Shown: one piece after another, positions 49,134 to 64,000 of the stretch
Layout of the letters: the number at the start of each line of letters is the position of its first letter
Numbering within the stretch: position 1 is the stretch's first letter
From: Escherichia coli
GTDB lineage: Bacteria; Pseudomonadota; Gammaproteobacteria; Enterobacterales; Enterobacteriaceae
NCBI RefSeq assembly: GCF_050920415.1
Contig: NZ_CP169309.1
Strand: one strand, 5' to 3'
DNA length: 64,000 nucleotides
Translations under genes and position numbers: made by a program
Notes under the pieces: model-generated
The model's database searches: none
What the model was told of the DNA's origin: nothing
The model's input: the letters and a program-made list of their open reading frames with translations, nothing else

Positions 49134-50128
49134 GCTTTATCGGCGCTGCTTTCCTGCTGCGCCTGTAACTGTTCGGTCTGGCGTTTGTATCGACGCGCCA
49201 GCACCGCACAGACCATCAATTGGATCTGATGGAAAATCATCAGAGGCAGCACCATCATACCGATCACCGATGTGGGGAACAGAATGTTTGCCATCGGGAT
49301 GCCATTTGCCAGACTCTTTTTCGAACCACAAAAGACGATAGTAATTTCATCTGCCTTATTGAAGCCTAGTCGGCGTGCCATAAAGACGTTAACTACAATC
49401 ACGATAGCCAGAAGAACGCAACTGACCACCACGATAAACAGCAATGATCCCCAGCCAACTTTGTGCCAGATACCGTTAACGACGGCTTCGCTGAATGCCG
49501 TATAAACCACCAACAGAATGGACGTCTGGTCAGTTTTCGCAATCCATTTTTTATTACGCGACACCCAGTCACCAATCCACGGCCGCGAAAGATGCCCCAA
49601 CACAAATGGCAGCAGCAGTTGCAGCATTATCTTACCTACCTGCTCAAGGCTGCCCCCTGCACCGTGAACATTCATCACCAGGCCAACCAGCAACGGTGAA
49701 AGGAAAATCCCCAGTAGGCTGGATGCTGACGCAGAACAAACCGCCGCCGCGACGTTACCGCCCGCCATTGACGTGAAGGCGATTGCAGACTGCACGGTCG
49801 CGGGGAGAATGCACAAGTAGAGAAAACCGGAGTAGAGCATCGGGTCGACATTTACCGGTTTCCACCACGCAAACAGCACGCCCAGAATCGGAAACAGCAC
49901 GAAGGTGCTGCACATTACCCATAAATGCAGTCGCCAATGACCACCGCCTGCAATAATGGCCTCTCGCGATAACTTCGCGCCGTGCATAAAGAACAGCAGA
50001 GCAATGGCTGCGGTAGTCAGATTTTCAAAGAAGGGAACGAAATCGCCCCTGGCCGGAAAGAAAGAGGCCAGCAACACCACCGTGATCAGGGTTAAGGTGA
50101 AAGGATCGAGGATACGAAAAAGTTTCAT
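49130..50128 (-). CDS. yfeH: Putative Na+-dependent transporter of the bile acid:sodium symporter family, YfeH
   Basis: 332 aa polytopic membrane protein. Confidence 0.85.
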   Translation of the reverse strand: MKLFRILDPFTLTLITVVLLASFFPARGDFVPFFENLTTAAIALLFFMHGAKLSREAIIAGGGHWRLHLWVMCSTFVLFPILGVLFAWWKPVNVDPMLYSGFLYLCILPATVQSAIAFTSMAGGNVAAAVCSASASSLLGIFLSPLLVGLVMNVHGAGGSLEQVGKIMLQLLLPFVLGHLSRPWIGDWVSRNKKWIAKTDQTSILLVVYTAFSEAVVNGIWHKVGWGSLLFIVVVSCVLLAIVIVVNVFMARRLGFNKADEITIVFCGSKKSLANGIPMANILFPTSVIGMMVLPLMIFHQIQLMVCAVLARRYKRQTEQLQAQQESSADKA

Positions 50129-50217
50129 AAAGACTCCAGATGATCGATGGTTCTATTGTGCTTCTTCCAGTTTGAGAAATAAAATTGATTTATTGCATCC
50201 ATTCATGAAGAAAACAG

Positions 50218-51144
50218 ATGAATTATTCTTTAAAGCAATTAAAGGTTTTCGTCACAGTAGCGCAGGAGAAAAGTTTTAGTCGTGCAGGAGAGCGTATCGG
50301 CCTGAGCCAGTCGGCAGTGAGTCACAGTGTGAAGGAGCTGGAAAATCATACTGGTGTTCGCCTGCTGGACAGAACCACGCGTGAAGTGGTGCTTACAGAT
50401 GCAGGGCAGCAGTTGGCTTTGCGTCTTGAGCGACTGCTGGATGAACTTAACAGCACGTTGCGCGATACCGGGCGTATGGGGCAACAACTGAGCGGAAAAG
50501 TTCGGGTCGCTGCCAGCCAGACCATTTCCGCGCATCTTATTCCGCAATGCATTGCTGAAAGCCATCGCCGCTATCCAGATATTCAGTTTATCCTCCACGA
50601 TCGTCCGCAGCAGTGGGTGATGGAAAGTATTCGCCAGGGAGATGTCGATTTTGGCATCGTCATCGATCCAGGCCCAGTGGGCGATCTGCAATGTGAAGCG
50701 ATTCTTTCCGAGCCTTTCTTTCTGCTTTGCCATCGCGATAGCGCTTTGGCCGTGGAAGATTATGTACCCTGGCAGGCATTACAGGGAGCGAAATTGGTGT
50801 TGCAGGATTACGCGTCAGGCAGCCGACCGCTGATTGACGCAGCGCTGGCGCGCAATGGTATTCAGGCGAATATTGTGCAGGAGATTGGTCATCCGGCGAC
50901 GCTGTTCCCGATGGTAGCCGCAGGCATCGGCATCAGTATTCTTCCCGCACTGGCGCTACCATTGCCTGAAGGTAGCCCGCTGGTGGTAAAGCGCATTACG
51001 CCGGTGGTTGAACGCCAGTTGATGCTGGTGCGCAGGAAGAACCGTTCACTTTCCACCGCCGCTGAAGCGTTATGGGACGTAGTACGAGACCAGGGCAATG
51101 CGCTAATGGCTGGGCGGGAAGGGGATCCGTTGTATCAGATATAG
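50218..51144 (+). CDS. yfeR: LysR-family transcriptional regulator YfeR
   Basis: 308 aa; N-terminal LysR HTH ([23 protein letters not shown]). Confidence 0.88.
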
Positions 51145-55552: not shown

Positions 55553-55607
55553 GCAGATAGTAAAAAAGCGCCTTTAGGGCGCTTTTTTACATTGGTGGGT
55601 CGTGCAG
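55553..55607 (-). repeat. Direct repeat copy 1: tRNA-Lys 3'-end fragment plus terminator hairpin
   Basis: gcagatagtaaaaaagcgcctttagggcgcttttttacattggtgggtcgtgcag; on the minus strand this reads CTGCACGACCCACCA (tRNA 3' end) followed by an A-run/gcgcc/ggcgc/T-run terminator. Confidence 0.7.
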
Positions 55608-55674
55608 GATGACTCGCTTCGCTCGCCCTTCGGGCCGTCGCCGCGAGCGGCTCCGTTGTTTCGCTGCGCTCAAC

Positions 55675-55698
55675 TCGAACCTGCTGCAGGTTCGAATC
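55675..55698. other. Palindrome built from head-to-head tRNA T-arm fragments
   Basis: tcgaacctgc-tgcaggttcgaatc; GGTTCGAATC is the conserved tRNA T-arm, present in both orientations. Confidence 0.55.
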
Positions 55699-55708
55699 TT
55701 TGAGTATC

Positions 55709-55763
55709 GCAGATAGCAAAAAAGCGCCTTTAGGGCGCTTTTTTACATTGGTGGGTCGTGCAG
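55709..55763 (-). repeat. Direct repeat copy 2: tRNA-Lys 3'-end fragment plus terminator hairpin
   Basis: 55-bp copy with one mismatch to copy 1, 156 bp downstream of it. Confidence 0.7.
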
Positions 55764-55927: not shown

Positions 55928-56227
55928 TCAGGAGATCATTAACCCGGATTCACCTTCCACGATCACACCACCATGTTCGGTGGTATCTCCCATACGGGCA
56001 ACGGCTTTACCGTTAATTTTGAGAACCGTTGAACCGGAAACAATAGTGTCTTTGCTACCGCTACCTTTGCAGGTGAGCTTATCACCCACCAACGCCAGCG
56101 GAACACCATTATACGTAACAAAGGTCTGCTGACATTCACTGACCGGGCCACCAATATGTGGGCGGGGGCCGGGATCAACTTTCGGGCAGGTATGGTTATG
56201 TCCTTTGAGTACCACGGCTTTACTCAT
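55928..56227 (-). CDS. PAAR-domain protein (putative T6SS spike-sharpening protein)
   Basis: ORF 55928..56317 trimmed to ATG 56227, which overlaps the upstream stop as ATGA; 99 aa, MSKAVVLKGHNHTCP...LKINGKAVARMGDTTEHGGVIVEGESGLMIS with a PAAR-like KAVAR motif. Confidence 0.7.
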   Translation of the reverse strand: MSKAVVLKGHNHTCPKVDPGPRPHIGGPVSECQQTFVTYNGVPLALVGDKLTCKGSGSKDTIVSGSTVLKINGKAVARMGDTTEHGGVIVEGESGLMIS

Positions 56228-56982
56228 CGTCTGTTCTCCTGCGCAGTTTTTGTGAATATGTCCAGAAGTCGCCAGTAAGCATACTCCTGTTGTCCCAGAT
56301 TCAGGCAACCATACCACCGTGGATGCAGAGGATCATCAAAACAACGAAATCCGTCATAATATTGGGCTACTGCCAGTAGCACTTCGGCCTGTCCGCCGGA
56401 TTCATAGCGGGATAGCGCCCGCCTTGCACTAGCCATCAGTTGTCGGTATATATTTTCATATAGCTCAACTGTTGGCGAAAAAGCCGTTCTTTTTTCCACC
56501 GTATACAGGCGGGTGAAAATCTGACCACTCCCCAGCCAGGCATTGTGATATTGGGGGATAATGCAGTGAGGCGTATCCGGCCCCCAGGAATGTTTATAGT
56601 GTTCACTAAGCCAGTCAACAGACCAGTCATCTTTATGTGCTATCAGGTATGCAGGTATAGTCTCATCTTGCGGGGATGTCTTTGCACTAATGTAGTGTTC
56701 AACAATTTTCTGCAATTCCGTATAGCGGACATCCTCCATAAAAAACGATCCCAGGCACAATCTGGCACTGGCAATATGTATAGCAAGCAATTGATCAGGA
56801 ACTTTTTGAGTCTCAGTCCATTGATAGCTCTGTCTGATTAATTCATCAATAGCGGATGCGGGAAGCTTTCTGTCGGTAATAACCTTACCAAAGCGGTTTA
56901 CCAGCCAGACGCGGCCCTTTTTCAGAAATTCCATCATCCGGTGCTCCGCCAGACTACGGTAAGTTGCTTCTGTTATCCTCAT
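56224..56982 (-). CDS. Hypothetical protein, paralog of the 309-aa upstream gene; candidate T6SS immunity protein
   Basis: 252 aa; shares FMEDVRYTELQKIVEHYISA and LLAIHIASA motifs with FVKEALYTQNEVLLKEWLTA and IVLAIEMLAS of the neighbour. Confidence 0.45.
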   Translation of the reverse strand: MRITEATYRSLAEHRMMEFLKKGRVWLVNRFGKVITDRKLPASAIDELIRQSYQWTETQKVPDQLLAIHIASARLCLGSFFMEDVRYTELQKIVEHYISAKTSPQDETIPAYLIAHKDDWSVDWLSEHYKHSWGPDTPHCIIPQYHNAWLGSGQIFTRLYTVEKRTAFSPTVELYENIYRQLMASARRALSRYESGGQAEVLLAVAQYYDGFRCFDDPLHPRWYGCLNLGQQEYAYWRLLDIFTKTAQENRR

Positions 56983-57014: not shown

Positions 57015-57944
57015 TTATTTAAAAAGCGTTTTTGTAAAAGCCAATTCCGGGTTAATGGCGATCAGTTTATCCAGCAATGGATAAAACCACTCCGGGGCAT
57101 TCCAGCGGCTGAAATCGGGGCGATGATCAATTGCCAGCGGTGTTTTTAACAGCGGATGATCGATTTCTGGGGTGGAAAGACCATGCTCTGCCCGAAAATT
57201 TTTTACTGCCTGATATTCAAACGGCCAGAGCAGCAATTCTCGGTCTTCAATTTCATAACCATTTCTGGCATATTCGTCTTCAGTTGTTTCGGTACGTGCC
57301 GACCATTTAAGATGGTTATCGCAAAGTGCTGTCAGCCACTCCTTCAGCAAGACTTCATTCTGTGTGTAGAGCGCTTCTTTTACAAACTGGGTATAAAAAC
57401 GATCAGAGGGGATACCAAATGTCTCCCAGTTGATAGTTTGTTTCTGTTCGCTGGCAAGCATTTCAATTGCCAGCACAATCATTTTTTGCGGTTTAAGCTT
57501 TTTAGCTTTTGCTACGTCAAAGTTTTTCAAACCTTGGGTGAAATAAGGATAATAAAGACGGGCGATATCAAGACGATGCGTTGCCATAAATGATAGGAGT
57601 GGAATTCCTTTCTTATAGAAAAAACCATCTAAGAAACCTGTGGTTTTAGAATATTGAATGGCTTCACAAAACAAATTCATGGATTTACATGCAACATAAT
57701 CACATATTAACGAGTTATCCTCTTTGTTTTTGTAAAATAAATACCACGCATATAGATAACAAAAGGATGAAGCTGCATCATAGAATATATATTGTGAATC
57801 AGATATTTCCTCGCCATTCGAATTGCCCACTTCTAATAAAGCATCAGAAATATCCTCATTGGAAATGTTTATATATCTGTTAACATCCATGTTAAAGGAA
57901 CTTTCATTAACAAAATAAGAATGAATTTCATTGTATCTTTTCAA
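57015..57944 (-). CDS. Hypothetical protein, paralog of the 252-aa downstream gene; candidate T6SS immunity protein
   Basis: 309 aa; AT-rich N-terminal third; C-terminal region homologous to the 252-aa ORF. Confidence 0.45.
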   Translation of the reverse strand: MKRYNEIHSYFVNESSFNMDVNRYINISNEDISDALLEVGNSNGEEISDSQYIFYDAASSFCYLYAWYLFYKNKEDNSLICDYVACKSMNLFCEAIQYSKTTGFLDGFFYKKGIPLLSFMATHRLDIARLYYPYFTQGLKNFDVAKAKKLKPQKMIVLAIEMLASEQKQTINWETFGIPSDRFYTQFVKEALYTQNEVLLKEWLTALCDNHLKWSARTETTEDEYARNGYEIEDRELLLWPFEYQAVKNFRAEHGLSTPEIDHPLLKTPLAIDHRPDFSRWNAPEWFYPLLDKLIAINPELAFTKTLFK

Positions 57945-57946
57945 TT

Positions 57947-58972
57947 TTAATTTCCTTCTTTTTGAGGAAGACTACTGTGAAAAGGAATATCCGTTTTAAA
58001 TTTATCTTTGACTATTTTTGCATCACCAAACCACAAGGAAATAGATGACATTCCCTCTGGGCAAGCTATGTTTTCAATTAATTTATATTCTTCGTTTATA
58101 CCTTGACCAATAACAAGTCCTATAACGCCCATTTCACCATTAGGTTTATTTTGATCTCGAAGTGCTTTTAGCAATTTTTTTACATTTCTTCGTTTTTCAT
58201 CATCCATCACATAACCACCTGGATTTTCTTTATTCATTTTTAACGCATTTTCAATTCTCTCTATAGCATAGTCAATGGCTCCCTCCTGTTTCTCTGATAA
58301 AATACCTTCATACTGCGTAAAATCACCTGCATCGTCACCATGACATGCCTTTGTTTTTACTTCACAGATCAGCCAAAAATCATCCGGCGGCGGTGAAGGG
58401 TTTTTTACTTTAGCAACAAGATCAAGGCCGTTTTTGGTTTTGACGTGCTGAACCGACATCACCGAACCTTCTACTACGCTGAAGTTAACGGTAGCCGTTG
58501 CCTGTTTAGCCTCCTTATTATAGATATGAAATTGTGCATTTCCCTGTTTCATCTTCCTGGCGAGAAGCACCTCGCCAACATCACCAGTAAACTGATTGAT
58601 TTTCAAAGAAAATAAGCTATCAAAAATCTTATTTTTAATCAAAAAATTAGCAACCTCAGTTGCGCTCATGCCAATTTCTGTATCGCCATTAACCTTTACG
58701 CGAAATGTTGCGTGTGTTGTACTGCCAGGCTCAAGCTCTGACTCAATACGTACAATTGCTTCCGTTGCATCTTTATTACCGGAACCTGACGCATGTGTTA
58801 TCCCTACAGTAATCCTGGTCGGGCCGGCTTGTTCTTCAAAAGTGGCAAAGGCCGTATTGGCTCTGAGGACTTCAGCCTCGGCTTCTTTTACTCTTTTCGC
58901 ATCATTAATCGCACGCCGGTTTACCTGCGTAACATTTACTGCATCTTCGATAGCCCCTGTACCTTTTCCCAT
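57947..58972 (-). CDS. Hypothetical protein with a possible PD-(D/E)xK nuclease motif; candidate T6SS toxin domain or immunity protein
   Basis: 341 aa; start overlaps the upstream stop as TAATG; literal PDDFWLICEVK matches the P-D...(D/E)-x-K pattern. Confidence 0.4.
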   Translation of the reverse strand: MGKGTGAIEDAVNVTQVNRRAINDAKRVKEAEAEVLRANTAFATFEEQAGPTRITVGITHASGSGNKDATEAIVRIESELEPGSTTHATFRVKVNGDTEIGMSATEVANFLIKNKIFDSLFSLKINQFTGDVGEVLLARKMKQGNAQFHIYNKEAKQATATVNFSVVEGSVMSVQHVKTKNGLDLVAKVKNPSPPPDDFWLICEVKTKACHGDDAGDFTQYEGILSEKQEGAIDYAIERIENALKMNKENPGGYVMDDEKRRNVKKLLKALRDQNKPNGEMGVIGLVIGQGINEEYKLIENIACPEGMSSISLWFGDAKIVKDKFKTDIPFHSSLPQKEGN

Positions 58973-60306
58973 TATTTTTCCACTCCCTGGTCTTCATTCT
59001 CAATCTTCATTGAGGAAACCTCTACTTCATTTACCAGTGCAACCTTACTGCCAAGGTAAGCGCCGCCACCACTGGTAACTAATGCTGAAGCAAATTTATA
59101 TTGTGGTTTTTTACCAAATACCATCAGGGTATTTATTGCATGAAAGGCCACTTCAATATTATGTCCCCCACCTGATTTTTTATCCAGATAGCGGGAAAAC
59201 TCAAGCAGTGGATTATATCCATCGGCTTTTGAACCAAGCCACCGATTACGCAGTTTATCCGCTACCTCAATACCATGATTGACATCCACAACAAGCATAG
59301 CAATACGAAGAACCTTCATTGAACCTTTTAAAAAAATAGTCCCGGAAACAATAGCAGCAATCGTCAGAAGTGCATCAGCGACCTCTAAAATAACATCCCT
59401 TACAACATCAAGAGACCGGTTCTCATCAGCCTGATTAAGAACGGCACGGATAAATTCTTCCGCCAGATCAGAGGGGGATTTATGTAATGGGCCGGCCAGT
59501 CTTTCAGGACGACTTCCTGCACTATTTGTCGCCAGCTCACCATATATCAGCGATACATCAAGTGTTTCATATGGACGGTATTTCAGTTGCTCATCGGTTA
59601 ACACATCCCGGTATTCAGCAGGAAGACCTATCGGAACTTCTGCATCTCTGTAGATATAAATATCCGGCGCAACCTCAACAACAAAATCATCTCCCCAGAA
59701 TGTACTGCCATGAGTTCTGGCATGTTCCACTTTATAATTATTACTGTAATAAGGGATAATATTTGCACCAACCTCATGGTATCTTAATTTAAATTTAGCA
59801 TCTTCCAGTTGAACGGTTTCTCCTTTATATTTAACAGCAAACCCGTTGCCGTCTGGGCTTTCCCTGGCCTGTTCGTCAAAAAGCAGTGCAAAATTGAGAA
59901 ATGCTTCATCCCCAAGTTGTTTTCTGACGGCATCAAAAAACGCATCCATTGCCACAATTTCTTTTGCTGTTTCAATAGCATTTCTTTCCGCATCCGTTAA
60001 ATCTGGCGAGTCCTGTATTGTTGCATAACGGGTGATTTCATTATTCAGACTACGGAGTGGAATACCTCGCTGTAAATGTACCTGTGAGGTCTTCTTATCC
60101 ACTGGCTCAAAGAAAGATCCCATGAAACTGGCTGTATTCTTATAAAAGTCTTCTATCGCCTGCTGTCCCTCAGCCGTTGAGCTGTCAAACTCCACAAAAG
60201 CGCCAAATGGTTTCAGCGGGCATGTTGCTGTTGCGCTTTTTGCATCACACGGTATTGCGTCAGAAGGAATGCTTCCCGTTGCCGCTCCGTCAGTATCATC
60301 CATCAC
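58972..60306 (-). CDS. Hypothetical protein; candidate T6SS cargo effector partnered with the DUF4123 adaptor
   Basis: 444 aa; sits directly downstream of the DUF4123 gene, the canonical effector position; hydrophobic segment ALLTIAAIVSGTIFL; no GxSxG lipase motif. Confidence 0.45.
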   Translation of the reverse strand: MMDDTDGAATGSIPSDAIPCDAKSATATCPLKPFGAFVEFDSSTAEGQQAIEDFYKNTASFMGSFFEPVDKKTSQVHLQRGIPLRSLNNEITRYATIQDSPDLTDAERNAIETAKEIVAMDAFFDAVRKQLGDEAFLNFALLFDEQARESPDGNGFAVKYKGETVQLEDAKFKLRYHEVGANIIPYYSNNYKVEHARTHGSTFWGDDFVVEVAPDIYIYRDAEVPIGLPAEYRDVLTDEQLKYRPYETLDVSLIYGELATNSAGSRPERLAGPLHKSPSDLAEEFIRAVLNQADENRSLDVVRDVILEVADALLTIAAIVSGTIFLKGSMKVLRIAMLVVDVNHGIEVADKLRNRWLGSKADGYNPLLEFSRYLDKKSGGGHNIEVAFHAINTLMVFGKKPQYKFASALVTSGGGAYLGSKVALVNEVEVSSMKIENEDQGVEK

Positions 60307-60322
60307 TTACACTCCTTTTTTG

Positions 60323-60898
60323 CTATATAAAGACCAGACTATTTTTTTCTTTTGGGTTTTCACAAATAATATTTGTCAGTCCGGTGGTAAATTCTGCAAA
60401 ATCGTCCGCAGGTAAAAAAGGAATAAAATCCCGCACTGTTTCAGGCGCATAATACCGGAACATGACCCACATTTTATTTACCTCATCATAAAGCTGATTA
60501 AATTTTCGCAGATGATGAGTCAGTTCATTCAGGGAAAGATAGCTGCGGATAAAAATACCCCAGCCATTACCCCGGCTGCTTCTTATCAGCCATTCCGTAA
60601 ATGGCTTATCTTTTTCCAGCCGGACGATATAAGGCGCATAAAGAGAAAACTGTTCTCCCAGTTCACCTTTCCATAAGCATGACCATTCCGTCTCATACGC
60701 ATCAAGTAAAACGGCAATATCCGGTTTTTTTAATGCATCAATGATGGCATAAGTGTGGCAGTCAGTTATTTTACTGGCAGATATCACTGATATATCATCA
60801 GATGCTGTTTTTTCCGGCATACTGAAAAGAAAGCCTGTCAGCGCATCCTGGTATAATTGTGTATCTTCCGGCACATCAATAATTTTCAGTCGGCTCAT
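60323..60898 (-). CDS. DUF4123-family T6SS effector adaptor/chaperone (Tap/Tec-like)
   Basis: 191 aa; YAIIDA, YAPYIV, HLRKF and RYYAPETVRDF motifs match my recollection of the DUF4123 signature; ATGA overlap with the vgrG stop. Confidence 0.75.
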   Translation of the reverse strand: MSRLKIIDVPEDTQLYQDALTGFLFSMPEKTASDDISVISASKITDCHTYAIIDALKKPDIAVLLDAYETEWSCLWKGELGEQFSLYAPYIVRLEKDKPFTEWLIRSSRGNGWGIFIRSYLSLNELTHHLRKFNQLYDEVNKMWVMFRYYAPETVRDFIPFLPADDFAEFTTGLTNIICENPKEKNSLVFI

Positions 60899-62967
60899 TT
60901 TTTCCCGTCCTCTTCTTCGGCCTGTTTTGCTTTCGCACAGATTTCGCAGAACGGTTTGCCCTCATTCACCATCGCCGTCAGTGCTTCCACCTGATCCACG
61001 CCGCCGCCCCGGATATCCATTGCTGGCGTCAGGATCTGAAGTTTTTTTGCCTTTATCGTAACGCCACCACCATCAATGGTCAGACTGCCGCCAGGCCCGG
61101 CGATCACCAGTCGCTCTCCGGCGTGCATAATGTATTTATTGGTCTGCGAAAAAATCTTCGTATTTACCGTTTCATCCTTCACGCCCTGGATCACCACCGT
61201 TTTATTGCCGCCAATATCGTCCAGGGAATCAGCAAATATTTTCTTTCTTTCCGAACTGTTCACCACCAGCGTCCGGTTTCTGTCCACTTCGATTTCCTGA
61301 TCCTGAACCACCCGGACAACGGAGTTCCTGCCGATGGTTTCATAGTGATCCCGGCCCACATCTGTTTTCTTGTCCTGACCAATGGTTTCCTGCTGGTCAA
61401 CGCCCACGCTTTTGGCGCGGTTATTACCGATGGTATGGCTTTCATCGTGCAGAATTTCCGTCACATGGTCTTTCTGCGCGTGCATATAGACCTGTTCCCG
61501 GTTTGTGGCGTCTTCAAAACGCAGTTCATTAAAACCCTCGCCCCGGTAGGTCTGCGTGCGGATAGTGGTCTGCGTTTTCGTTTCCGGTAAATCCCCCGGC
61601 GAGCGATTTTTCTCATGGTAGGTGCGCCCCATGATGATCGGCTGGTCAGGATCACCGTTTAAAAAATCGACAATCACCTCCTGACCCACACGCGGAATGG
61701 CAAGATGACCAAATCCCGTCCCGGCCCATGGCTGTGATACTCTGATCCAGCAGGAACTGTTCTCATCCTGTTTGTGATAACGATCCCACAAAAATTTCAC
61801 CCGCACCCGGCCATGCTCGTCGCAGAAGATTTCCTCACCTTCCGGCCCGGTGACGACCGCTGGTTGTGGGCCATCCACTTTCGGCTTAGGCTGCGGCGTG
61901 GGACGCCAGGTTTTATCCGCTGGTATGGCCTGAAACGTATTCACCAGCGTGGTTCCCTGGCCCCGGCTTCCGGGAACGGCCTGCGGCTGCTCGCCGTGCA
62001 GTTCGCTGGCGATCACCTGCCATTCCCGGTTCAGATCGTCAGCCGGATGATCGGTCAGCGTAAAGCGCGTACCGGGCCACAGTTTTGGCGAGTTGCTGCA
62101 TCCCCTGGCGATCTCCGCATCATTGCGCCAGCCTTCCATCTGGTAACGGGTAAAATCTCTGCCATGCTGTTCGTCCTTAAAACGCCCCGGATAGTCCATC
62201 ACCTCATACTGGTTGCGCTGGCCGTTAAGACTGGCGGCATTATGGCGAAAACGCCCCGGCCAGTCAGGGTATTTGAAGGTGTAGTCTTTGCTGATGACAT
62301 ACGCCGGGCGTATCTGCGCACTGTGGCGGAACTGGCTGATATACTCCGTTTCCGTGGCGCGGGGTTCCGGGTTAAACGGAAGGGGGAAGGCTTCCGGCAG
62401 GTAGTAAACTTTATCGCAGAACACCAGCGGCTGATCCTTCCCTTCACGGGCGTGCTCTTCGTAAAAAAATATCCCTTCTTCCGCCAGCAGGCGGCAGAGA
62501 AAACCAAAATCAGTTTCACCGTACTGCACGCAGAACTCCCGCGCCGGATGAGGCTCGCCCAGCAGATAAGCCGTCTGCATCACCCGGTTGTCATCCAGCA
62601 GGTGCTTAATAATGGACTGAATATCCTGCTGCTGAAAATGGCGAAAATTTTCCCGCAGGCTGCTGCGCCAGAAAGGAGGATGCACCCGCAGGTAGTAGTT
62701 CATTTTATGACCGTCATATTCCCCGCGCTCAATCCTGGCTACCAGCCCGGTGATATGGCGCTGTGCGGTATTGTTTTGCCACAGGGTAAGCGTGGCATTC
62801 AGTTCCAGCAGTTCCGTAGATTTAAGGTGGATAGTGTCGCTGATGAGATGAAGATCGAGGGTGAATAATGCGGAGTAATGCTGGGTAAGATGAAAGTTTA
62901 CGACGGCAAAGGTTTCTGTATCAAAATCGCCGATATCAACGGTAAAACGGGTTCCTGTCCGGGGCAT
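60895..62967 (-). CDS. vgrG: Type VI secretion system spike protein VgrG
   Basis: 690 aa; gp27/gp5-like body, e.g. CDEHGRVRVKFLWDRYHKQDENSSCWIRVSQPWAG and repetitive beta-helix region; short C-terminal tail EGKPFCEICAKAKQAEEEDGKK. Confidence 0.9.
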   Translation of the reverse strand: MPRTGTRFTVDIGDFDTETFAVVNFHLTQHYSALFTLDLHLISDTIHLKSTELLELNATLTLWQNNTAQRHITGLVARIERGEYDGHKMNYYLRVHPPFWRSSLRENFRHFQQQDIQSIIKHLLDDNRVMQTAYLLGEPHPAREFCVQYGETDFGFLCRLLAEEGIFFYEEHAREGKDQPLVFCDKVYYLPEAFPLPFNPEPRATETEYISQFRHSAQIRPAYVISKDYTFKYPDWPGRFRHNAASLNGQRNQYEVMDYPGRFKDEQHGRDFTRYQMEGWRNDAEIARGCSNSPKLWPGTRFTLTDHPADDLNREWQVIASELHGEQPQAVPGSRGQGTTLVNTFQAIPADKTWRPTPQPKPKVDGPQPAVVTGPEGEEIFCDEHGRVRVKFLWDRYHKQDENSSCWIRVSQPWAGTGFGHLAIPRVGQEVIVDFLNGDPDQPIIMGRTYHEKNRSPGDLPETKTQTTIRTQTYRGEGFNELRFEDATNREQVYMHAQKDHVTEILHDESHTIGNNRAKSVGVDQQETIGQDKKTDVGRDHYETIGRNSVVRVVQDQEIEVDRNRTLVVNSSERKKIFADSLDDIGGNKTVVIQGVKDETVNTKIFSQTNKYIMHAGERLVIAGPGGSLTIDGGGVTIKAKKLQILTPAMDIRGGGVDQVEALTAMVNEGKPFCEICAKAKQAEEEDGKK

Positions 62968-63406
62968 AACGTTTCCTTAGCAATAATACGGCTCAGAGAT
63001 AACGAAATCATTCATGAGCAATATGAATTATGATTAATAATTCGTAAAAGGAATGTATTTTATAATGACTCTTCCTGTTTTTAGTCAAAGTTGTCATTAT
63101 AATTAATATTATACTAATTAATTTCCAGAAAACTTCTGTAACCAGTAAAAACACTGCTCCGACAACCTAACATAATGTAAATTAACACTATTAACTGGAA
63201 ATTATCATCTTTAAGTTTACATAAATTCCGTGATGCATATCGCAAAGCGGTGATAAATATATATCCTGTGAAAATGAACTTTGCACCTCCACAGAATATG
63301 TTAACGTAATATCATATGGTAGCAGAAGGCTATTAATTAATTATCCGTATTATAAATCTTGTCTGACGCCTTTCTGTTTCTGCTGTATTACGGGAAGGAT
63401 TACCTA
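62968..63406. promoter_or_regulatory. AT-rich divergent control region between vgrG and tssF
   Basis: 439 bp, visibly AT-rich (runs such as ttataattaatattatactaattaattt); no ORF; flanked by divergent starts. Confidence 0.5.
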
Positions 63407-64000
63407 TGGCAATGAACGAACGTTTTTACCGGGAAGAACTGGATTATCTTCGTCAGTATGGCGCGCTGCTGGCGCAGGAATATCCCGCCCTGAAATCTTT
63501 CCTGGGCAGTAAAAACGCTGATCCGAACGTGGAACGCCTGCTGGAAGGGTTCGCGTTTCTCTCCGGCAGACTGCGGGAAAAAATCGAGGATGAGTTTCCC
63601 GAAATCACCGTTCCGCTGATTAACCGTCAGTGGCCCAATTATTTGCGCCCCGTTCCGCCGATGACCGTTATCGAATACACGCCGGACAGCTGCAGGCTTA
63701 CCGCTCCCCTGACCGTTTCACGCGGTGAGCAGGTGATGAATCCGGGGCAGGACAGCCAGCCGGAAAACAGCCGCCCCGGTGATGAATCAGGGGCTACCGG
63801 GGGGCCACCTTCCTGTATCTTCACTTTGTGCCGTGATATCCGCCTCCTGCCGTTGTGCATTGAAACAATACAGAGTCGCAGCAGCCCGCAATCCAGTACC
63901 CTTGATCTCATTTTCACCGTGACGGGAAAAGGCCGGATCGCCACCGCCGATCTGAATCAGATCAGTTTCTGGCTGGGCGATGCGGACGAACGCAGCCGCA
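63407..64000 (+). CDS. tssF: Type VI secretion baseplate protein TssF (ImpG/VasA family), N-terminal 198 aa; continues beyond the window
   Basis: Open frame from ATG 63407 to the window end with no stop (absent from the ORF track for that reason); MAMNERFYREELDYLRQYGALLAQEYPALKSFLGSKNADPNVERLLEGFAFLSGRL... matches the TssF N-terminal signature. Confidence 0.75.

Follow-up and report, generated by a model that had tools for sequence, protein, structure and literature searches.

The 64,000-nucleotide (nt) stretch of Escherichia coli DNA analysed here (contig NZ_CP169309.1; hereafter the window) encodes a 341-amino-acid (aa) protein that is probably the toxic subunit of a type VI secretion system (T6SS) cargo effector, founding a new family of PD-(D/E)xK nucleases. 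A nuclease toxin is supported by the predicted fold of the protein, by its invariant residues of catalytic type, and by its position among T6SS cargo genes together with the orphan-immunity behaviour of one of them, which we call d1. A sequence-only reading of the same DNA had likewise proposed a restriction-endonuclease-fold T6SS toxin; this evidence sustains the proposal, but the ‘PD’ on which it had been based was the wrong one. The open reading frame (ORF) of 341 codons lies where that reading placed it, at 57947-58972, and is on the minus strand, the plus-strand frame there being riddled with stops. RefSeq annotates its coding sequence (CDS) as a hypothetical protein (WP_000515785.1, E. 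coli MFDS1022581). The 7.2-kb stretch around the gene is 100% identical to the MFDS1022581 chromosome and is present in one of 5,426 complete E. coli genomes.

Conserved residues and the literal motif

The starting point of the sequence-only reading was the string NPSPPPDDFWLICEVKTK, taken to contain the PD-(D/E)xK active site. The string is indeed present in the 341-aa protein, with P196-D197-D198 encoded at nt 58379-58387, E204 at 58361-58363 and K206 at 58355-58357. It is, however, no more than chance gives and little informative alone: the pattern PD-x(2-30)-[DE]xK arises in 17% of shuffles of the protein, and in 5% in its short-spacing version, and it occurs in 8 of the 52 window ORFs of at least 200 aa.

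Conservation among homologues is more discriminating. A word-indexed search of 5.8 billion proteins returned six clusters for the 341-aa protein (E. coli, Klebsiella spallanzanii, Serratia fonticola, an Enterobacteriaceae metagenome-assembled genome and two metagenomic sequences), and a profile search of 1.84 billion cluster representatives enlarged the family to 23 representatives at E <= 0.001. We aligned 18 sequences, the six close homologues and 12 full-length distant members (18-27% identity), spanning 18-78% identity overall. Initiator methionine aside, only E134, D184, K206 and Q229 are invariant in this alignment. Position 204 is glutamate or aspartate in all 18 sequences, and E204 and K206 are both invariant among the six close homologues, which gives the family signature G-x-x-G-E134 ... 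G-[LI]-D184 - 19 residues - [ED]204-x-K206 ... Q229. Positions 197 and 198, by contrast, vary among homologues (P, E, K, G or H): four of the six close homologues have proline at 197, the Serratia sequence has histidine at 198, and both positions are unconserved in the distant members too. Since these positions are unconserved and lie in a loop between two strands, P196-D197/D198 was ruled out as the source of the catalytic aspartate, and on the alignment the conserved aspartate of the family is D184, not D197 or D198. The identification of the string as the active site is thus supported for its ExK half and fails for its ‘PD’ half. The accompanying worry, that the spacing from D to E was too short, is removed because D184 sits 19 residues before E204-x-K206, a distance in the usual range.

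Predicted fold

Residues 116-341 are predicted, with high confidence in the structural model, to adopt a restriction-endonuclease-like fold. Predicted alone from alignment A3, this region gave a predicted local distance difference test score (pLDDT) of 91.9 and a predicted template modelling score of 0.89. The model begins with a long helix, alpha1, which carries E134, followed by three short extra strands and a strand beginning at D184; a proline-rich loop containing the PDD residues then leads into a long strand with E204-x-K206 at its centre, and the model ends with helices, the main one directly preceded by Q229, and a hydrophobic strand at 283-292. The alpha-beta-beta-beta-alpha-beta core of the PD-(D/E)xK superfamily, which the sequence-only reading had expected around the motif, is present in this prediction, and E134, D184, E204 and K206 fall in the helix and strands expected of PD-(D/E)xK nucleases, as judged by position along the predicted elements.

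The nearest structures to the model were Hjc resolvases (5.5, 5.3, 4.7 and 4.6), the UPF0102/YraN protein 3fov (5.3), Sen15 (5.3), R.SwaI (5.2) and NhoI (5.1). Further neighbours were lambda-exonuclease-like enzymes, VRR-Nuc, HincII, EcoRV, MGME1, Cas4, cap-snatching endonucleases, Dna2, FokI, AddA, RecB, NucS, Card1 and HamA. A Foldseek search of AFDB50 recovered the protein’s own family from Serratia, Providencia, Frischella, Proteus, Pectobacterium, Yoonia, Jannaschia and Endozoicomonas, and, after these and a Cellulophaga match, dozens of UPF0102 proteins. The Cellulophaga baltica protein A0AAU8RIP5 (499 aa, annotated as DUF4280, PAAR-like) matches the nuclease domain with a Foldseek E of 3e-4 at 16% identity; going by this modelled similarity, Bacteroidota may have a version of the toxin fold joined to a spike-tip domain. 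The N-terminal region of the 341-aa protein is poorly modelled, with pLDDT values of 26-64 across 10-residue blocks to aa 110, and we infer that residues 1-115 are a candidate partner- or spike-binding domain.

A new sequence family

No Pfam-A family matched the 341-aa protein or any of the 18 members at E <= 0.001. None of the Tox-REase, VRR_NUC or UPF0102 (PF02021) models of Pfam matched any of the 18 members, and the protein is therefore a new sequence family inside the known PD-(D/E)xK superfamily. It had no significant match in NCBIfam, PADLOC or PHROGs, nor in a PDB sequence search, whether used as a single sequence or as a profile. PDB sequence searches with profiles A2, A4 and A5 gave nothing significant, and an hhalign comparison of alignment A3 with a single E. 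coli YraN sequence was uninformative (probability 0.07%). Pfam-A searches with the 444-, 309- and 252-aa proteins encoded beside it found nothing significant, and none of the four proteins, the 341-aa one included, had a Pfam hit in any locus.

Neither a literature search on six RefSeq protein accessions, which yielded no paper, nor one on T6SS effectors resembling YraN or Hjc brought up an earlier account of the family. Two candidates for one were rejected as different systems: the Proteus pef operon, whose effector is of the PAAR-HNH type (PMC5714391), and ECUMN_0231-0233 of E. coli UMN026, a three-gene module (PMC11114119).

The T6SS cargo cassette

The nuclease gene belongs to a seven-gene cassette with the order VgrG-DUF4123-partner-nuclease-d1-d2-PAAR (Table 1), in which ‘partner’ denotes the 444-aa protein. 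The genes are packed as in an operon, with gaps of 0-35 nt or small overlaps. The ATG of the DUF4123 gene overlaps the vgrG stop and the d2 stop overlaps the PAAR ATG (ATGA in each case), and the ATG of the 341-aa gene shares one nucleotide with the stop of the 444-aa gene (TAATG), an overlap that the sequence-only reading had correctly described. A promoter scan returned sites at chance level and a terminator scan none that marked an operon boundary, and these scans carry no information on operon structure. The cargo genes have a GC content of 38-47%, against 51.5% for the window.

The same order is found in Klebsiella spallanzanii and Serratia fonticola, and also in two loci whose nuclease is only 26-30% identical to that of the window; one of these distant cassettes lies inside a full T6SS cluster, with TssF upstream and ImpA_N/VasL downstream. 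Three short metagenomic contigs contain parts of the cassette in the same order, and a Salmonella cassette has a duplicated d1. The cassette was thus seen, complete or to the contig end, in the window and in eight loci of distinct lineages (L002, L004-L008, L015 and L017), five metagenomic or genomic loci having a nuclease 26-31% identical to the window’s. In every locus with enough flanking DNA, across at least five genera, the nuclease gene lies inside a VgrG...PAAR cassette.

Probable toxin, candidate immunity gene and gene turnover

We compared identities to the window’s proteins across seven loci. Partner and nuclease diverge together (57/56, 52/50, 33/31, 33/29, 36/30 and 32/26% by locus), and the N-terminal ~140 aa of d1, at 24-42% identity, diverge like them. 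The DUF4123 protein (about 50%), PAAR (74-77%) and the C-terminal ~170 aa of d1 (50-76%) are conserved across loci. Invariant residues of d1 in alignment A5 include C208, D209, H211, W214, the WPFEYQAV segment (240-247), H263, P264 and K267. No family match or PDB sequence match was found for d1, and d2 had no family match in Pfam, NCBIfam, PADLOC or PHROGs.

The d1 family comprises at least 142 clusters, from Salmonella, Pectobacterium, Serratia, Proteus, Providencia, Gilliamella and Frischella, and several of its members stand apart from complete cassettes. In Gilliamella sp. M0320 (L011 10001-13083), three tandem d1 paralogues of 318 aa each lie among metabolic genes with no vgrG, PAAR, DUF4123 or other T6SS genes nearby; the trio resembles a set of orphan immunity genes kept by this bee-gut bacterium. 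In Proteus vulgaris CP090064.1 (L010, 893662-914612), a 20-kb array behind VgrG-DUF4123-Lipase_3 has d1 in four copies and two genes resembling d2, together with a fragment of the nuclease gene (196 aa), repeated PAAR genes and repeated genes for ~262-aa and ~308-317-aa proteins. In Salmonella enterica MXNZ01000046.1 (L009 1827-2342), an in-frame 171-aa chimera joins PAAR residues ~1-72 to the last ~95 residues of a nuclease of this type, and after it come an orphan d1, with 61% identity to that of the window, and a d2 fragment; the chimera appears to be a recombination scar of cassette replacement.

Truncated toxin 3' ends, intact downstream genes and stand-alone arrays are the usual footprint of toxin/immunity cassette turnover. 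The truncated nuclease 3' ends and the stand-alone d1 arrays suggest that the toxin is the 341-aa protein and that d1 is the putative cognate immunity protein; d2 may contribute to protection. Neither d1 nor d2 has a strongly hydrophobic window by the Kyte-Doolittle threshold, a property of their sequences that fits a cytoplasmic site of action.

In a further Salmonella enterica locus, DAJBYT010000011.1 (L008 4813-5756), the nuclease orthologue is called as two ORFs of 240 and 74 aa that jointly cover the family profile, and two full d1 copies follow; this split gene is probably a frameshifted pseudogene.

The 444-aa partner

The partner family, with eight clusters, is as rare as the nuclease family. 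It had no Pfam, NCBIfam, PADLOC, PHROG or PDB sequence match, and the precomputed Pfam field is empty in all of its homologues. The partner gene always lies between the DUF4123 and nuclease genes, that is, at the DUF4123 cargo position, and its product varies from 407 to 542 aa across loci. It has a hydrophobic C-terminal region at about aa 301-330 (Kyte-Doolittle windows > 1.6) as well as glycine-rich hydrophobic stretches.

A split two-gene effector had been suggested by the sequence-only reading. The co-divergence of the 444- and 341-aa proteins agrees with the two working as one effector, but a recent split or frameshift as the origin of the pair was rejected: no fused partner-nuclease protein exists among the 23 nuclease representatives or the eight partner clusters, and two distant loci have a gap of 16-17 nt between the genes in place of the overlap. 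From these comparisons the two-gene state is, as far as sequence can tell, ancestral and stable. Given their adjacency, translational coupling and parallel divergence, the most economical reading of partner and nuclease is that they make up a binary effector.

Genomic setting

Coordinates of the cassette and of the elements of the 341-aa protein are collected in Table 1.

Table 1. The cargo cassette in the window, with the regions and codons of the 341-aa gene
Feature	Coordinates	Strand	Remarks
vgrG, 690 aa; T6SS spike, first cassette gene	60895..62967	-	TIGR03361 E 3.9e-180; annotated as Vgr family
DUF4123 adaptor/chaperone, 191 aa	60323..60898	-	annotated as DUF4123; PF13503 on orthologues; weak Tla1 match
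Partner, 444 aa (443 aa from ATG at 60303); candidate co-effector/carrier	58972..60306	-	
341-aa gene; predicted PD-(D/E)xK nuclease, candidate T6SS toxin	57947..58972	-	
N-terminal region, aa 1-115	58628..58972	-	poorly modelled; four strands and a helix predicted
Nuclease domain, aa 116-341	57950..58627	-	predicted restriction-endonuclease-like fold
Codon E134	58571..58573	-	invariant; helix alpha1, G-x-x-G-E motif
Codon D184	58421..58423	-	invariant; G-[LI]-D, strand start; proposed true ‘PD’ aspartate
P196-D197-D198	58379..58387	-	unconserved; variable proline-rich loop
Codons E204-V205-K206	58355..58363	-	conserved (D/E)xK
Codon Q229	58286..58288	-	invariant; just ahead of the long helix after the (D/E)xK strand
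d1, 309 aa, TTG start; candidate cognate immunity	57015..57944	-	
d2, 252 aa; candidate second immunity or accessory protein	56224..56982	-	in every complete cassette
PAAR, 99 aa; spike tip, last cassette gene	55928..56227	-	NF033420 E 1.1e-7; annotation
tssF start; baseplate subunit	63406..64000	+	divergent from vgrG, runs off the window

The 252-aa reading of d2 starts MRITEATY, like the N termini of its homologues (MRIT..., MRLT... or VRIT...), and judged by these the start of the RefSeq CDS (WP_000969802.1, 237 aa) has probably been placed 15 codons too far downstream. An RtT RNA element (RF00391, 51.6 bits) lies at 55593-55718 on the minus strand, between xapR and the PAAR gene, at one edge of the island; at the other edge, in the matching genome, two integrase genes stand beside tRNA-Lys/Val genes, which suggests a tRNA-associated genomic island. 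Beyond tssF and tssG (L001 19607-22482) there are small hypothetical genes and integrases, and what the island carries of a T6SS seems to be a remnant or a minimal piece. An IS2 element between yfeH and yfeR in NZ_CP169399.1 (L001 5112-6340) has no counterpart in the window (50128-50218); the same island is present in both, and the window therefore belongs to another strain or assembly.

Proposed mechanism

In the mechanism that we propose, the DUF4123 adaptor would load the 444-aa partner onto the VgrG/PAAR spike, and the nuclease would travel with the partner, attached to it by the ~115 poorly modelled residues of the nuclease N terminus, the two forming a binary effector. The hydrophobic C-terminal region of the partner may help the nuclease across the inner membrane of the injected cell, where it would cut nucleic acid in the rival cytoplasm, most likely DNA and in a metal-dependent manner. 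Sister cells would be protected by cytoplasmic d1, whose variable N-terminal half would track the toxin.

Taken further, this would be a new type of two-polypeptide T6SS effector, in which a DUF4123-loaded, membrane-active carrier ferries a non-covalently bound nuclease onto the spike and across the inner membrane, with a two-part protection by d1 and d2 in which the N-terminal domain of d1 sets specificity and its highly conserved C-terminal domain acts beyond toxin binding, for example by enzymatic reversal or by docking to conserved spike parts. As a whole we regard this extended scheme as possible though doubtful.

Alternative explanations

Several observations weigh against a T6SS nuclease toxin with d1 as its antidote. 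Pfam, NCBIfam, PHROGs, PADLOC, the PDB profile search and the hhalign comparison with YraN provide no sequence-level link to any nuclease family. When the full-length model was searched, no nuclease was among the top structural matches, the best being short matches (about 70-80 residues) to type III secretion system chaperones, which probably reflect the N-terminal domain. No MIX or other recognisable loading domain was detected in the partner (Pfam, E <= 0.001). An immunity protein would not usually have a domain that is far better conserved than its toxin, as the C-terminal domain of d1 is. Finally, tssF and tssG are the only T6SS core genes flanking the E. coli island, so that a T6SS encoded at another place in the genome would be needed for delivery.

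Among the other explanations, the one closest to ours retains a T6SS-delivered PD-(D/E)xK enzyme but supposes that it kills by acting on RNA (tRNA, rRNA or mRNA) or on a specific DNA structure, and not on bulk DNA. Some members of the superfamily cleave RNA, and the structural matches include tRNA-splicing and cap-snatching endonucleases; the nearest structures include the junction resolvase Hjc; for TseTBg, a Tox-REase-5 effector, cleavage of DNA as well as of RNA has been reported, T6EC2 (a Foldseek match to Tox-REase-5 domains) gave no DAPI phenotype (PMC11148199), and the VRR-Nuc effectors TseV are structure-specific (PMC9635880). Most of the top structural neighbours are, however, DNA endonucleases, and we hold this variant to be rather improbable; nothing in the nuclease sequence discriminates the substrate. 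It seems more clearly unlikely that the true toxin is the 444-aa partner, disrupting membranes for example through its hydrophobic C-terminal region, with the 341-aa protein a non-toxic scaffold, co-chaperone or secreted helper. The only residues invariant over 18-78% identity are those of the expected PD-(D/E)xK site, and a scaffold would not keep exactly these. Moreover, d1 and d2, having no strongly hydrophobic window, do not fit periplasmic or membrane immunity, orphan d1 genes adjoin fragments of the nuclease gene and not of the partner gene, and a nuclease-type domain fused to PAAR-like DUF4280 seems to exist.

Two explanations that deny the 341-aa protein a toxic role are far less probable. 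The sequence-only reading had allowed that it might be the immunity protein of the 444-aa effector, as would suit a gene directly downstream of, and translationally coupled to, one in the usual effector position and diverging in step with it. Its enzyme-like conservation and predicted nuclease fold speak against this, as do the absence of full-length orphan copies, only truncated fragments having been seen, when d1 forms tandem orphan arrays, and the tiny size of the nuclease family (23 representatives) beside the at least 142 clusters of d1. Equally remote is the idea of a nuclease of the genomic island itself, engaged in mobile-element maintenance, anti-phage defence or recombination and placed near T6SS genes by coincidence, for the protein has no PADLOC or PHROG match and its gene is in a VgrG...PAAR cassette at every sufficiently flanked locus, in at least five genera and in one full T6SS cluster.

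Relation to known effectors

The PD-(D/E)xK superfamily already counts several T6SS effectors: TseT and other Tox-REase-5 effectors, PoNe and TseV. The 341-aa protein probably works as they do, but its family matched no profile in the Pfam-A scans, and in structure its closest neighbours are small nucleases of the Hjc/YraN type. TseT of Pseudomonas aeruginosa (Tox-REase-5, PF15648) is said, in work attributed to Burkinshaw et al. 2018, to go with TecT (DUF4123), co-TecT, PAAR4 and TsiT. It is reportedly an antibacterial effector of PD-(D/E)xK fold with a cytoplasmic target and cytoplasmic immunity, made as one polypeptide with its own loading region. Like TseT, the 341-aa protein has a predicted PD-(D/E)xK fold and is encoded alongside a DUF4123 adaptor and PAAR, and its presumed target and candidate immunity protein are likewise cytoplasmic. 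Unlike in TseT, a separate partner precedes a stand-alone nuclease, the conserved d1 and d2 follow, no co-TecT-type co-chaperone was recognised, and the Tox-REase models of Pfam leave all 18 members unmatched. TseT is cited as a Tox-REase-5 T6SS effector (PMC11148199).

The likeness to UPF0102/YraN (PF02021) and archaeal Hjc is structural only, with no sequence-level match. Compared with these proteins, the nuclease domain of the 341-aa protein is ~100 residues larger, with extra strands before the D-strand and more C-terminal helices and strands, and the protein has a 19-residue proline-rich hairpin loop and a ~115-aa N-terminal domain; its gene lies in a toxin context, theirs in a housekeeping one. 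The TseV1-4 proteins of Salmonella bongori are VRR-Nuc T6SS effectors (PMC9635880), whereas in the cassette described here PAAR is a separate gene and the VRR_NUC profile is unmatched. PoNe DNase effectors, recognised through distant similarity, are described as T6SS toxins with a domain of the PD-(D/E)xK phosphodiesterase superfamily (PMC6688995), a class to which the 341-aa protein would also belong; as there presented they are the C-terminal domain of polymorphic, often MIX-containing effectors, and it is by this description and by the Pfam scan that the 341-aa family is set apart from them.

For the pairing of partner and nuclease, a precedent by analogy may be found in VP1388/VP1390 of Vibrio parahaemolyticus (with VP1389 as immunity protein), a T6SS toxin and co-effector that are described as binding each other and as mutually dependent for secretion (PMC8728615). 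By that description the Vibrio pair consists of a MIX-domain co-effector and a periplasmic toxin, whereas here no MIX was detected, a DUF4123 adaptor is present and the predicted nuclease would act in the cytoplasm. Similarly, the T6SS nuclease Tde5, described as neutralised by two unrelated immunity proteins from the same locus, Tdi5a and Tdi5b (PMC13392607), could by analogy be a model for d1 and d2.

Implications

T6SS nuclease toxins are well established, and another one is unsurprising. Pfam, NCBIfam, PHROGs and PADLOC all miss the present family, however, and its four companion genes all carry the annotation ‘hypothetical’. The least ordinary aspects of the system are that the partner is separate and obligate, that two conserved genes follow the nuclease gene, and that the C-terminal domain of d1 is so strongly conserved. 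Naming the family would let annotators spot the cargo cassette in Escherichia, Salmonella, Klebsiella, Serratia, Pectobacterium, Proteus, Providencia and Gilliamella/Frischella, and would explain the orphan d1 arrays as immunity collections. The partner and nuclease pair would moreover be a tractable Enterobacteriaceae system for studying how DUF4123 proteins load a stand-alone toxin predicted to act in the cytoplasm, and how such a toxin crosses the inner membrane of its target.

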